Source: a phage. From it: a stretch of DNA of 51,099 nucleotides. Position 1 is the stretch's first letter, and the number at the start of each line of letters is the position of its first letter. The position numbers and the translations under genes were made by a program. The stretch lies in the sequence record NC_129764.1. One strand, written 5' to 3'. This document shows, in pieces, positions 41,636 through 44,667 of the stretch. The notes beneath the pieces were generated by a model, which searched no databases, was not told where the DNA came from, and saw nothing but the letters and a program-made list of their open reading frames with translations.

Positions 41636-42787
41636 ATGTCACAAGCTAAAATCACTACCGAGCAACTTATCGAAGAGCGCATGAGCGGCCTTACACTTCG
41701 CGAGATTGCGGAAAAGTACGGTATGCACATCCGCACTGTTGAAGCTCGTCACGCAAAACTTGCAAAGGAAGGTCACTTCCACGGTAACGAGCATGTTGCT
41801 AAGAACGTACCGGAAGGATTCATGGTAAAAGGCACATCAACGATGATTCGCGGCGATGGGACCGAGGTAGTGCGATGGGTTAAGACCGATCAGGACCGTG
41901 AGAAGATTGCGGCAATGATGGAAGCAGCGCGTATTGCATTCTGTGAAGACTTGCCGCGAGCAAAACCAACTGAGCTACTCACATCGCAAGGGCTTACAAC
42001 CGCTATTGGCAAGCTGGCACTCTACCCGGTGTTCGATCTTCACATTGGCGCGCTTGCTCACAAGCATGAATGCGGAGAGAACTACTCTACAGACGTAGCG
42101 GAAAAAGTGCTGAATGACTTCTTTAACTACGCGATCGATATTGCCCCGAACGCAGAGAAGGCTGTTCTGTTAATCGGCGGCGACTTCCTTCACTCAGACG
42201 GTCTTGATGCTGTTACCCCGGCAAGCGGTCACGTTCTGGATCAGGATTCACGATATGCGAAATTGGTGCATGTGGCTATTCGATCGGTGCGACGAGCTAT
42301 CGACAAAATGCTGACTAAACACAAAGAGGTCGAAGTTCAGGTTATCGAAGGGAACCACGACCAGGCCGGAATGATTTGGCTACGCGCTGCAATGGCTGCA
42401 TACTATGAGGACGAGCCGCGAGTATTCGTTGACGTTAGTCCTATGATTCTGCATAAGACCCGCTGGGGAAATACCTTGTTGGGATACACTCACGGTCACA
42501 CGATGAAAAAGGCAGACACGCGACTTGCAGCGATGGCGGCAGACTTCCGTGCAGACTTCGGTGAAAGCAAATACGTGTATACTCACAGTGGACACTGGCA
42601 CCATCAAACAATCACAGAACACTCGTTAGGTATTGATGAGGTTCACGGGCAGTTAGGCGCGAAAGATGCATACGCCGCGCGAGGCGGGTGGCGCTCATAT
42701 CGCCAGGCGGCGGTAATCGTTTACGATAAACAGTTTGGTGAAATCGGTCGATTCATCTATCGTCCAGAAATGACAGGATCGCACTAA
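41636..42787 (+). CDS. metallophosphoesterase (calcineurin-like) with N-terminal HTH-like segment (383 aa)
   Basis: Motifs GDFLHSDG, GNHD, GH; N-terminal LTLREIAEKYGMHIRTVEA. Confidence 0.55.
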   Translation: MSQAKITTEQLIEERMSGLTLREIAEKYGMHIRTVEARHAKLAKEGHFHGNEHVAKNVPEGFMVKGTSTMIRGDGTEVVRWVKTDQDREKIAAMMEAARIAFCEDLPRAKPTELLTSQGLTTAIGKLALYPVFDLHIGALAHKHECGENYSTDVAEKVLNDFFNYAIDIAPNAEKAVLLIGGDFLHSDGLDAVTPASGHVLDQDSRYAKLVHVAIRSVRRAIDKMLTKHKEVEVQVIEGNHDQAGMIWLRAAMAAYYEDEPRVFVDVSPMILHKTRWGNTLLGYTHGHTMKKADTRLAAMAADFRADFGESKYVYTHSGHWHHQTITEHSLGIDEVHGQLGAKDAYAARGGWRSYRQAAVIVYDKQFGEIGRFIYRPEMTGSH

Positions 42788-42798
42788 TCGCAAAAAAC
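42778..42798 (+). promoter_or_regulatory. degenerate dyad motif ATCGCACTAATCGCAAAAAAC
   Basis: About 14 of 21 positions match; followed by hairpin cccgaagggattcggg and TATATT. Confidence 0.3.
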
Positions 42799-42850
42799 TC
42801 CCGAAGGGATTCGGGTATATTGACCACATAGAAAACAAAGAGGGTATTTC

Positions 42851-43027
42851 ATGAAACGAGTTAAGTGCATCCGAAATGATTCCAAAACGCTTCCATTCCG
42901 CGTAAATCAGATCTATAGTGTTGGTTATGATTTCGGAGGTGGATTGTTTGAGATTTACGATGGTAGAGGTTCAACAATCCAAGCTCCTCTGAACGGTCAT
43001 TACCTGGAATTTATTGAGCTAGATTAA
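42851..43027 (+). CDS. small protein (58 aa)
   Basis: ATG with RBS aagagggtatttcATG; below track cutoff. Confidence 0.4.
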   Translation: MKRVKCIRNDSKTLPFRVNQIYSVGYDFGGGLFEIYDGRGSTIQAPLNGHYLEFIELD

Positions 43028-43145
43028 CAATATCATTCATAACCTTACGGGCTGGCATGGTTTACATGCTGGCCTTTTTGCGTTGTATCAAGTAAATTTG
43101 AAGGTTAAAATCAACTCACTTGTTCAAAAAATATATGGTGAGATT

Positions 43146-43361
43146 ATGAAAGAATTTTTAACAGCGGCTACGTCCAGCACGGGCGGCGCTTCATTGGTAG
43201 GGGCGGCGACAGGGCAACTTTATATTGCTGGCGCTACATTCATTTGCTTTCTGCTTTTTGGTGCATGGGGCGCATACTGGAAGTATCGTGATAGTAAGGC
43301 AATTCAGGAAGCGTTAAACGATGGCGATCTAAATAAGGCGCTTAAGATTAGGGGGAGATAA
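43146..43361 (+). CDS. holin (71 aa)
   Basis: Small hydrophobic protein with charged C-terminus directly upstream of endolysin. Confidence 0.6.
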
Positions 43362-43849
43362 TGAGTTTAAAAAATAACGTTATAGGCGCATCGATCGGGG
43401 CCGCTTTGACGTTGACGCCTACTCTACTGGAACGAATCGAAGGTATAGAGTACGAGGTGTATTACGATATCGCCGGAGTACCTACCGTATGCAGCGGAAT
43501 AACCGGGCCTGACGTAATACTTGGTAAGAAATACACTAAGCGAGAATGCGATGCATTGCTGATAAAACATATCGGAGTCGCTCAGCGATACGTTGACAAA
43601 AAGGTGAATGTTGATATTCCGGTAACGATGCGCGCGTCACTGTACAGCTTCACTTTCAACGTTGGTACTGGCGCGTTCGGATCTTCTACAATGCTTAAGC
43701 TAATAAATCAGAGTAAGCACAAGGAAGCGTGCAATCAGTTATGGCGATGGGTATACTACTACAACCCAAAAACCAAAAGGCGCGAAGTGTCTAGAGGACT
43801 CAAGAATCGACGCGCTGAAGAATACGCGTATTGCGTTAAGGAATTATGA
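43361..43849 (+). CDS. SAR endolysin (GH24-type lysozyme, 162 aa)
   Basis: N-terminal Gly/Ala-rich weakly hydrophobic segment; catalytic E-x8-D-x5-T ([16 protein letters not shown]). Confidence 0.8.
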
Positions 43850-44250
43850 TGAAACTGAAGAAAACGTGCATTGCGATTGCAGTGGCTGTTGGTGTTATTT
43901 CTCTATCCGGTTGCTCGACGGCATCTGCTCTGAGCGGTTTACTTTCTGACTCCCCGGATGTTACTGCGCAGGTTGGCGCTGAGAACACGAAGCAACTGGC
44001 GGGAGTTACTGCAAAGGCCGACGATAAGCGAGAAGTGAAGGTGAGTGATTCAAATATTGGCAAGATTGACTCATCCGTCAAGAAGTCTGTAGAAGTGTCA
44101 ACCATTCAGGCTAACACGGTTAACGCTGAAAGCATCACGGTAACAAAACCGGGGAACTGGTACGATGCAATTGTAGGGTGGACTCTCGTTTTTATTGGCC
44201 TGTTGATGGTTTATTTTTCAATTCGTAAGTACGAAAAAAAGGAGGCGTAA
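43846..44250 (+). CDS. unimolecular spanin (134 aa)
   Basis: Lipoprotein signal with lipobox LSGC plus C-terminal transmembrane helix [13 protein letters not shown]. Confidence 0.7.
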
Positions 44251-44262
44251 GCCTCCATTCTT

Positions 44263-44478
44263 TTATGCATCAGCCCACATGTAACTTTCGTTCGTGAGTT
44301 TTGCGTATTCTCGAACTTCAATCTCGCAGGTGTCGCCGTACATCTCAGCGACCTTCTTCTCGTTCGCTACCGCCGTTTCTTCAGTCCATCCATCGGCCTT
44401 GCTGTAAAGGGTGGGAATCTCACTGCTAGTGCCGTTAGAGTGGTTGTAAACGCGAACTACTAAAAATTTGTTAGCCAT
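44263..44478 (-). CDS. hypothetical protein (71 aa)
   Basis: ATG (MANKF) with RBS aaggaaagcattATG downstream of a motif copy. Confidence 0.5.
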   Translation of the reverse strand: MANKFLVVRVYNHSNGTSSEIPTLYSKADGWTEETAVANEKKVAEMYGDTCEIEVREYAKLTNESYMWADA

Positions 44479-44539
44479 AATGCTTTCCTTCGGGTCGCCT
44501 CGTTTCGATGAAACAAATATACCCGATACGAGATCGGGT

Positions 44540-44560
44540 GTTTTAACAAAAAGTGCTATT
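44540..44560 (-). promoter_or_regulatory. dyad motif copy (minus strand AATAGCACTTTTTGTTAAAAC)
   Basis: Sequence match; hairpin acccgatctcgtatcgggt followed by TATATT. Confidence 0.65.
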
Positions 44561-44667
44561 TGTACCTTTTTACGTGAAGGAGTAACTCCCCCTCCTTGTC
44601 GCAAAGATTATGCTCGCTTTCGTTACTGGCCCTCATTGAAGTGAGTAACAGACTCAACAACCCTTGC

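Follow-up and report, generated by a model that had tools for sequence, protein, structure and literature searches.

A T1-type lysis cassette with a SAR-type endolysin and a unimolecular spanin in a Tunavirus genome

The closest described counterpart of the locus considered here is the three-gene lysis module of phage T1 (NC_005833, 42878-43982), made up of genes 13, 12 and 11, which encode proteins of 71, 162 and 133 aa and are joined by overlapping junctions. The product of the last gene, gp11, is the prototype of the unimolecular spanins (u-spanins). It complements lambda RzRz1, its LSGC lipobox was shown to be functional by substitution, and no sequence similarity to any o-spanin was reported for it (PMC6139136). 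Phage lambda itself carries out the last step of lysis with two proteins, Rz and Rz1, that connect a transmembrane domain (TMD) in the inner membrane to a lipoylated cysteine in the outer membrane. Phage 21 and DLP12 likewise have an embedded Rz/Rz1 pair (rzpD and rzoD in DLP12). Their endolysins are homologous to the one described below.

The window analyzed here is a stretch of phage DNA of 51,099 nucleotides (NC_129764.1). Between positions 43146 and 44250, the ORF list and the sequence give three consecutive plus-strand ORFs in the order holin, endolysin and spanin (Table 1), which is also the gene order of T1, with the same three protein lengths. The original prediction had called this stretch a cassette of holin, endolysin with a signal-anchor-release (SAR) N-terminus and unimolecular spanin, in a T1-like phage, and both the ORFs and their orthology to T1 bear this out. 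The holin is 100% identical to T1 gp13, the endolysin 97% identical to gp12 and the spanin 91% identical to gp11, and the locus is syntenic with T1 genes 16-14-13-12-11-10-9. The predicted overlaps between stops and starts are present as well. The holin and endolysin genes meet in a TAATG junction, in which stop and start overlap by 1 nt, and the endolysin and spanin genes meet in ATGATGA, where the overlap is 4 nt if counted from the first ATG (ATG1) and 1 nt from the second (ATG2).

Across 42814-44262, nucleotide identity to T1 is about 92%, and the remaining 8% or so of divergence in the cassette is mostly synonymous. The codon differences number 12 synonymous and 0 nonsynonymous in the holin gene and 27 and 5 in the endolysin gene, which indicates purifying selection. 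Phage XJA18-XJ-2024 is closer still, with 99.4% nucleotide identity and genes annotated as SAR-endolysin and U-spanin. PHROG matches were found for the holin (1.9e-38), the endolysin (2.3e-49) and the spanin ("Rz-like spanin", 2.7e-45). Pfam and NCBIfam have no curated model for the T1-type holin or u-spanin, and searching these two proteins against both databases gave only sub-threshold matches, to DUF3262 (15 bits), DUF202 (14 bits) and spanin2_3 (21.5 bits, where the cut-off is 80). The assignment of these two proteins therefore rests on PHROGs and on direct identity to T1.

The gene order, the orthology, the sequence signals and the conservation of these signals are all observed at this locus. 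Together with the lysis steps proposed below, the cassette is almost certainly the lysis module of a Tunavirus (a T1-like siphophage), orthologous to T1 genes 13, 12 and 11. Nothing speaks against this assignment of the cassette, in which the pinholin step is the weak point. As such the cassette is already known, being the well-studied module of T1 as carried by one of its close relatives. The window is thereby confirmed as a Tunavirus genome, and all three genes can be named with confidence, where many relatives in GenBank are labelled "hypothetical protein", "lipoprotein" or "Rz-like spanin". Its importance beyond correct annotation is small, as this is a textbook T1 module whose spanin is the prototype of the class.

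Table 1. Features of the lysis locus and its flanks, in the coordinates of the window.
Feature	Position	Strand	Basis
DUF7244 (SH3-like) protein, 58 aa, T1 gp14 homolog	42851-43027	+	PF23896, 8.5e-29; phrog_4788, 8.4e-34
Intrinsic-terminator-like hairpin, 11-bp stem, 5-nt loop, then TTTTT	43049-43080	+	Terminator scan
Holin, 71 aa (T1 gp13)	43146-43361	+	100% identity; phrog_2877 (holin), 1.9e-38
SAR-type endolysin, 162 aa (T1 gp12), GH24/T4-lysozyme-like muramidase of the phage 21 R type	43361-43849	+	97% identity
SAR-like segment, endolysin codons 7-23	43379-43429	+	Composition, hydropathy
Catalytic triad E27, D36, T42	43439-43441, 43466-43468, 43484-43486	+	E-x8-D-x5-T motif
Unimolecular spanin, 133 aa (T1 gp11 ortholog)	43849-44250	+	91% full-length identity; phrog_1804, 2.7e-45
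Lipobox L19-S20-G21-C22 (T1 numbering)	43903-43914	+	Regular-expression match
C-terminal TM helix of the spanin, aa 107-125	44167-44223	+	19-mer, mean hydropathy 2.23
Bidirectional terminator hairpin GGAGGC-GTAA-GCCTCC	44241-44256	both	Scan matches on both strands

The third gene had been read as encoding a single protein with a lipoprotein signal at the N-terminus and a TM helix at the C-terminus, on the plan of T1 rather than of Rz/Rz1, and both ends were found as described. The protein starts with MKLKK and a hydrophobic core, which lead into a pattern match for LSGC. The Ser at +2 after Cys22 predicts sorting to the outer membrane. At the other end, the TM helix is followed by a basic tail, RKYEKKEA. 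The lipobox with Ser at +2, the C-terminal TMD and the basic tail occur in 10/10 homologs from siphophages and podophages (34-91% identity), and the G-C of the lipobox is invariant among them. Relatives of the spanin are present in 1165 phage records (tblastn), and the protein is annotated as U-spanin in GenBank record PV584117 and in several relatives.

The periplasmic part of the spanin has no cysteine, the only ones being Cys8 in the signal peptide and Cys23 in the lipobox (ATG1 numbering); such an absence is one of the criteria for T1 gp11-type u-spanins (PMC6139136). Compared with T1, the periplasmic domain differs by 16 synonymous and 0 nonsynonymous codons, and 11 of the 12 amino-acid changes from gp11 are in the last 33 residues, in the juxtamembrane region and TMD. 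For spanins of this type, the periplasmic domain is predicted to consist mainly of beta strands. In a single-sequence AF2 model with a mean pLDDT of 56, the helix at residues 101-132 is the sole part with a pLDDT of 72-82, while residues 21-96 are mostly below 55 and have no strands called. The sequence thus supports the identification of the 43849-44250 product as a T1 gp11-type unimolecular spanin, with complementation known for the 91% identical T1 gp11 itself. Like Rz/Rz1, it would link the two membranes in the last step of lysis, but it carries both anchors on one polypeptide, and it has no coiled-coil i-spanin, no embedded ORF and no periplasmic Cys for disulfide-linked dimers.

Some records label homologs of this gene as "lipoprotein" or "hypothetical protein", as might be expected if the product were only a lipoprotein, either a superinfection exclusion protein of the Cor/Llp type or a lone o-spanin. 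This is so improbable as to be negligible, given the identity to the experimentally characterized T1 gp11 (91%), the retention of the C-terminal TMD in 10/10 homologs and the position of the gene, which holds the last place in the lysis cassette. A two-component system, for its part, should include a separate Rz1-like ORF, which the original prediction had named as a finding that would speak against a single-gene spanin. When 43000-44400 was scanned in every frame of both strands for a start, signal and lipobox, embedded and overlapped ORFs included, the spanin gene was the only one to turn up. The sole lipoprotein ORF is thus the full-length spanin, with its TMD at the C-terminus, where an i-spanin has it at the N-terminus.

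There are two candidate starts for the spanin. ATG1, at 43846, would give a protein of 134 aa. ATG2, at 43849, is the likelier start judging from the sequence, since an AAGGA Shine-Dalgarno sequence (43838-43842) lies 6 nt ahead of it and the T1 and XJA18 annotations both use it. Internal starts were reportedly described for T1 gp11 (J Virol, 2018). In the spanin gene of the window, the in-frame codons GTG 12, 63, 65 and 83, TTG 119 and ATG 120 were inspected, and none has a Shine-Dalgarno-like 4-mer upstream.

The endolysin matches Pfam Phage_lysozyme (PF00959, 1.2e-32), and its best solved relatives are PDB entries 3HDE and 3HDF (6e-35; 6.1e-35 for 3HDE), which we take to be the phage 21 lysozyme, a SAR endolysin, and RrrD (4ZPU, 5e-34), to which it is 46% identical. 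GenBank PV584117 annotates it as "SAR-endolysin". The SAR-like N-terminus and the E-x8-D-x5-T triad that had been predicted for this protein are both there. The motif occurs once, E27, D36 and T42 align without gaps to chain positions 35, 44 and 50 of 3HDE, and the triad is invariant in the family alignment. Residues 7-23 form an uncharged segment of 17 residues with 53% Gly/Ala/Ser/Thr and a mean Kyte-Doolittle hydropathy of 1.68, preceded by K4. The corresponding values for the SAR segment of RrrD are a mean hydropathy of 1.60 and a Gly/Ala/Ser/Thr fraction of 0.65, and the SAR-like character of the N-terminus is kept in 7 family members as well as in RrrD.

The cysteines of the endolysin are at positions 44, 63, 124 and 158 only, so that the SAR segment itself contains none, and this is also the case in 7 relatives. 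SAR endolysins without a cysteine in this segment are activated by refolding, as is phage 21 R, and not by disulfide isomerization of the P1 Lyz type. Judged from sequence, the endolysins of phage 21 and DLP12 appear to share both the triad and an uncleaved, Gly/Ala/Ser/Thr-rich N-terminal anchor that has no cysteine. Unlike them, the endolysin in the window has no TGPSGN linker, the 6 residues that join the SAR segment to the catalytic Glu.

An N-terminus in which a hydrophobic stretch containing small residues comes after a basic residue could also be an ordinary cleavable Sec signal peptide, in which case the endolysin would be a secreted enzyme with no SAR anchor. This is very improbable. 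The hydrophobic stretch ends 3 residues before catalytic Glu27, so that cleavage there would cut away the active site or fall right beside it, and from query residue 11 on, the segment can be aligned with the N-terminal part of chain 3HDE_A. Its composition also matches what is described for SAR segments, in which a basic residue precedes an uncharged stretch of weak hydrophobicity with much Gly/Ala/Ser/Thr (PMC9239132). A SAR-type N-terminus is also consistent with what is known of the T1 endolysin, which lysed E. coli within 2 h when expressed alone, something that the T7 endolysin did not do (PMC10954549). Lysis of E. coli by the endolysin by itself fits with export that is independent of the holin.

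On its upstream side, the cassette is preceded by a gene for a DUF7244 (SH3-like) protein, with which T1 gene 14 is syntenic. Its presence upstream of the lysis cassette is already published, and an accessory place in the lysis module has been suggested for the protein (PMC13164509). A fourth member of the cassette might modulate endolysin activity or cell-wall binding. The DUF7244 match is strong (8.5e-29), the gene lies between the exonuclease and pinholin genes in 188 Drexlerviridae genomes (PMC13164509), and its codon differences from T1, 13 synonymous against 4 nonsynonymous, indicate purifying selection. However, neither a signal sequence nor a hydrophobic segment is present in the protein (the best 19-residue window reaches 0.34), which should thus remain in the cytoplasm until lysis. 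Among the related loci compared, those of phages haarsle, slyngel and Sanco have the trio of lysis genes but nothing annotated in the SH3 slot by the holin. In addition, a strong and positionally conserved terminator-like hairpin separates the DUF7244 gene from the holin gene. A role as a fourth member is therefore unlikely.

This hairpin, at 43049-43080, is conserved in T1. Its predicted folding energy is -19.7 kcal/mol (z = -3.8), and 0 of 200 shuffled sequences folded as well. An equivalent hairpin with a T-run is found 70-83 nt before the holin ATG in 7/7 Drexlerviridae loci, with differing stem sequences, and the Sanco record annotates a terminator at the matching place upstream of its holin. 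T1 also shares the bidirectional terminator at the downstream end, for which it has a terminator annotated at the matching place. The first 10 bases of this second hairpin overlap the last codons and stop of the spanin gene. The hairpin is preceded by an A-run and followed by a T-rich run, and its fold has z-scores of -3.8 on the plus strand and -4.2 on the minus strand. The scan gave no plus-strand sigma-70 promoter for the cassette. A candidate picked out by eye at 43084-43112, TTGTAT-17 nt-TAAAAT, is conserved in T1 but was rejected as too weak, matching at 3/6 and 5/6 positions.

The holin is preceded by a Shine-Dalgarno-like GGTGAG (43137-43142). A longer ORF of 92 aa that would start at TTG 43083 was rejected on the grounds that its start lies in the terminator tail and lacks a Shine-Dalgarno sequence, and that the holins of all relatives begin with MKEF, MKDF or MREF. 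Residues 4-23 make up a weakly hydrophobic segment with 80% Gly/Ala/Ser/Thr and a mean hydropathy of 0.84, followed by a TM segment at residues 25-45 (mean hydropathy 1.5-1.8) and a basic C-terminal tail with a net charge of +3. A similar layout of weak segment, TMD and basic tail is seen in S21/EssD, the holins of phage 21 and DLP12, which also have a length of 71 aa; in EssD, the mean hydropathies are 0.59 for the N-terminal segment and 1.72 for the TMD. In EssD, however, a polar loop of 10 residues lies between the two segments, whereas only Q24 separates them in the holin of the window.

In spite of this likeness, the two holins are not sequence homologs. Against PF04971, the family of the phage 21 holin S, the T1-type holin gave no match at E <= 1, where EssD scores 2e-35, and comparison with EssD of DLP12 gave no BLASTP alignment and an hhalign probability of 1%. 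Homology to the phage 21 pinholin was rejected on these grounds.

The original prediction held that a SAR endolysin implies a pinholin-type holin. A pinholin is indeed the likely reading, but "implies" was too strong a word. Phage Mu has no holin whatever (PMC9239132), and the SAR endolysins of P1 (Lyz) and phage 21 also function with canonical holins, that of phage 21 with the lambda holin (PMC9025707). The holin in the window could accordingly be canonical, with large holes, or belong to some other class of holins that have a single TMD. Either kind would still release the SAR endolysin, since all holins depolarize the membrane. The lack of homology to the S21 family would agree with this, as would the absence of a loop between the hydrophobic segments and the T1 GenBank record, which annotates gp13 with a "single transmembrane domain". 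Against it, the size and composition of the holin closely parallel S21/EssD, u-spanins of the T1gp11 family are reported in cassettes with pinholins and SAR endolysins (PMC6139136), and the holins of T1 and TLS were put forward as class II pinholins (PMC11447400). The T1 holin expressed alone also had no marked lytic activity and low toxicity (PMC10954549). A non-pinholin is thus somewhat unlikely. The holin gene adjoins the SAR endolysin gene with overlapping stop and start, the genetic pairing expected of a pinholin, and the T1-type holin is likely to be a pinholin, the putative label that the literature proposes for it. Among the papers searched, none was an experimental report of T1 gp13 making the nanometre-scale holes, too small to let out a cytoplasmic endolysin, that define a pinholin.

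If the holin is a pinholin, it may represent an independent, non-homologous family that is convergent with S21, in a cassette that the upstream hairpin makes into a timed transcription unit of its own, apart from the SH3-like gene. We put this forward tentatively, as a real possibility that falls short of being probable. In such a holin, the SAR-like segment abuts the hole-forming TMD without a loop, so it would never form a hairpin with it. Instead, the protein would insert directly, with its N-terminus out and its C-terminus in.

A sequence of events during lysis can be proposed from these parts, in which we infer how the SAR segment is released, how large the pinholes are and that the membranes fuse. 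The three genes, bounded by the terminator-like hairpin upstream and the bidirectional terminator downstream, would be translationally coupled through their overlapping stops and starts. The 162-aa lysozyme would be exported by Sec and held inactive at the inner membrane by its N-terminal SAR segment. Meanwhile, the 71-aa holin would build up in the same membrane until, at a programmed time, it triggers and makes the proton motive force collapse, most likely by way of small "pinholes". Depolarization would free the SAR segment from the bilayer, allowing the enzyme to refold into its active form and degrade the peptidoglycan. The 133-aa spanin would already be in place, and once the murein is gone, it would pull the inner and outer membranes together and fuse them, destroying the outer membrane.

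Outside the cassette, the surroundings differ from those in T1 in two respects. T1 has an HNH gene, gene 15, that is absent from the window. Conversely, just past the spanin gene, the window has a 294-bp segment (44263-44556) with a small minus-strand ORF, which T1 does not have.

Three successive plus-strand ORFs (ORF listing and sequence) occupy 43146-44250 and encode a holin, an endolysin and a spanin, with coordinates and overlapping junctions as the original prediction had described them. At the holin/endolysin junction, TAATG, stop and start have one base in common, and the endolysin stop lies within an ATGATGA whose two spanin starts give an overlap of 4 nt (ATG1, 43846) or 1 nt (ATG2, 43849). 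All three genes are preceded by a purine-rich, Shine-Dalgarno-like sequence (holin, GGTGAG; endolysin, GGGGGAG; spanin, AAGGA). The spanin start is taken as 43849, since AAGGA lies 6 nt before ATG2 but only 3 nt before ATG1, and ATG2 is the annotated start in both T1 and Escherichia phage XJA18-XJ-2024 (XJA18). An 89-aa ORF antisense to the spanin gene (43836-44105, minus strand) is unannotated in T1 and XJA18 and is probably spurious.

Features of the lysis cassette and its flanks
Feature	Coordinates	Strand	Description
DUF7244 protein	42851-43027	+	gp14 homolog; DUF7244 8.5e-29
Terminator-like hairpin and T-run	43049-43080	+	between DUF7244 gene and holin; terminator scan
Holin	43146-43361	+	71 aa, MKEFL...IRGR
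Endolysin	43361-43849	+	162 aa
Spanin	43846-44250	+	134 aa from ATG1; 133 aa from second ATG (43849)
GGAGGC-GTAA-GCCTCC hairpin	44241-44256	both	first 10 bases overlap spanin gene end and stop codon
Minus-strand ORF	44263-44604	-	113 aa as listed; phrog_27210 (unknown function) 7.6e-51, aa 43-113 only

The T1-like assignment is borne out. The holin, endolysin and spanin are 100%, 97% and 91% identical to gp13, gp12 and gp11 of T1 (NC_005833), the DNA is about 92% identical over 42814-44262, and the PHROG matches (1.9e-38, 2.3e-49 and, as “Rz-like spanin”, 2.7e-45) agree with these identities. The codons that differ from T1 are mostly synonymous (synonymous/nonsynonymous 12/0 in the holin, 27/5 in the endolysin and 23/12 in the spanin), which indicates that the three genes are real and under purifying selection. 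Essentially all of the 84 phage records that match 43000-44300 by megablast are T1-like; the best, XJA18 (99.4%), has genes annotated “SAR-endolysin” and “U-spanin”. Existing knowledge of the cassette already extends to individual residues. The original observation is confirmed and its interpretation supported; only what was concluded about the holin is overstated.

The spanin does combine a lipobox and a C-terminal transmembrane segment in one protein. Its N-terminus consists of MKLKK, a hydrophobic core and the lipobox L19-S20-G21-C22 (T1 numbering) with Ser at +2, a residue that does not signal retention in the inner membrane; its C-terminus comprises 19 residues with a mean hydropathy of 2.23 and then RKYEKKEA, and the periplasmic part has no Cys. 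In 43000-44400, a scan of every frame of both strands for ORFs with start codon, signal and lipobox yields the spanin gene alone, so that a separate Rz1 equivalent, embedded or overlapped, is absent, unlike in the DLP12 cassette, where rzoD lies within rzpD. This is the unimolecular architecture proposed for it: its T1 homolog gp11 is the prototype u-spanin, belongs to the largest u-spanin family and complements lambda RzRz1, and its LSGC lipobox has been tested, with an AWAC substitution that still complements and an AWAS variant assayed too (PMC6139136). Spanin relatives occur in 1165 phage records (tblastn). Ten homologs (34-91% identity) were aligned, some from siphophages of the Drexlerviridae and others from podophages of Klebsiella, Pectobacterium and Pantoea. 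The G-C of the lipobox does not vary among them, the motif P-[DE]-[IVM]-[TS]-A-Q-x-G-[AT]-E-N is kept, and all ten have the hydrophobic C-terminal 19-mer and basic tail. A single-sequence AlphaFold model is confident for the C-terminal helix 101-132 only; the periplasmic domain of the gp11 type has been reported to be β-rich.

Compared with T1 gp11, spanin codons 101-133 (44149-44247) show 11 nonsynonymous and 2 synonymous differences, with hydrophobicity preserved, and periplasmic codons 23-100 show 0 and 16. The divergence of codons 101-133 may stem from weaker constraint on a TMD that need serve only as an anchor, or from a recombination joint beside the adjacent indel.

The endolysin matches Phage_lysozyme (Pfam, 1.2e-32), and its nearest solved structures are 3HDE/3HDF, which we take to be the two forms of the phage 21 SAR endolysin R, and the E. 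coli RrrD structure 4ZPU (E about 1e-34). E27/D36/T42 is the sole E-x8-D-x5-T occurrence and aligns gap-free (HMMER) with 3HDE positions 35, 44 and 50, the catalytic residues of R. Residues 7-23 (17 aa), preceded by K4, are uncharged and without Cys, with 53% Gly/Ala/Ser/Thr and a mean hydropathy of 1.68, compared to 65% and 1.60 in the RrrD anchor. The SAR-like N-terminus and catalytic triad recognized earlier are both present, and in six relatives (45-97% identity), the triad is invariant and the N-terminal segment of like character. The segment fits the operational description of a SAR domain (PMC9239132). The six-residue TGPSGN linker of phage 21 R and RrrD is lacking, and the hydrophobic segment stops only three residues short of the catalytic Glu. 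When expressed on its own, T1 endolysin caused lysis of E. coli within 2 h, whereas T7 endolysin did not (PMC10954549), as would be expected of a holin-independent exported enzyme; export and release are predicted for the endolysin in the window.

Pinholins occur in most phages with a SAR endolysin, but Mu lacks a holin (PMC9239132), and the SAR endolysins of P1 (Lyz) and phage 21 also work with canonical holins (PMC9025707). The presence of a SAR endolysin is therefore a good prior for a pinholin rather than the implication originally claimed. Residues 25-45 of the holin form a true TM segment (hydropathy 1.5-1.8), and its C-terminal tail is basic (net +3); in the conserved N-terminal segment, residues 4-23, Gly/Ala/Ser/Thr make up 80% and the hydropathy is only 0.84. 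The S21-family pinholin EssD of DLP12 is also 71 aa long with the same layout and segment hydropathies of 0.59 and 1.72. Homology between the two is undetectable (no BLASTP alignment; hhalign 1%), the holin has no Pfam match to PF04971, for which EssD scores 2e-35, and Q24 alone separates the segments of the T1-type holin, compared with a polar loop of 10 residues in EssD. The T1 record labels gp13 a single-TMD holin; Kongari et al. and subsequent papers class it as a pinholin on the basis of context or prediction, and no experimental test was found in the literature searched. We consider the protein a putative pinholin, with fair confidence.

The published pinholin/SAR-endolysin/u-spanin pathway is the best-supported account. 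The lysozyme would be exported by Sec and kept inactive at the inner membrane until holin triggering collapsed the proton motive force; the SAR segment would then leave the membrane, and the enzyme would refold and degrade the murein. The spanin, anchored beforehand by its lipid in the outer membrane and its TMD in the inner membrane, would be released from the meshwork and fuse the two membranes. Our analysis contributes orthology, sequence signals and their conservation; work by others on the T1 proteins contributes spanin complementation and lipobox function (PMC6139136) and holin-independent endolysin lysis (PMC10954549). For the phage in the window, we infer SAR release, pinhole size and membrane fusion.

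The hairpin upstream of the holin (-19.7 kcal/mol, z = -3.8) is conserved in T1. In all seven Drexlerviridae lineages compared (the window and the related lysis loci L003, L004, L005, L007, L010 and L011), a hairpin and then a T-run lie 70-83 nt 5′ of the holin ATG, with stem sequences that differ between lineages, and Sanco has an annotated terminator at the equivalent position. This conservation suggests that the lysis genes are their own transcription unit. The hairpin parts them from the DUF7244/SH3-like gene wherever the latter is present; the gp14-type protein is described as a standalone SH3 domain tied to the Drexlerviridae lysis module (2026 paper, PMC13164509). Since the SH3-like protein also has no export signal, the hairpin argues mildly against its simply being co-expressed or co-localized with the periplasmic endolysin. 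A scan found no convincing sigma-70 promoter for the cassette. Several lineages (window 43115-43145, L004, L005, L010) have a TTGAC(A/T)- or TTGTTC-like hexamer about 24-31 nt 5′ of the holin ATG, which is too near that ATG to serve the holin as a -35 element and may be chance. Downstream, the hairpin overlapping the spanin stop scores as a terminator on either strand and shuts the cassette off from convergent minus-strand genes, as in T1.

The neighborhood differs from that of T1 on both sides. Upstream, the HNH endonuclease gene 15 that T1 has between genes 16 (exonuclease) and 14 is missing (42788-42850 versus T1 42028-42510), and the blastn alignment with T1 starts only at 42814; an association of HNH with the SH3 gene is described as only occasional (PMC13164509). 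Downstream, a 294-bp segment (44263-44556) absent from T1 carries a minus-strand ORF, of which the true gene is probably 44263-44478 (71 aa, MANKFLVV...), given the confinement of its phrog_27210 match.
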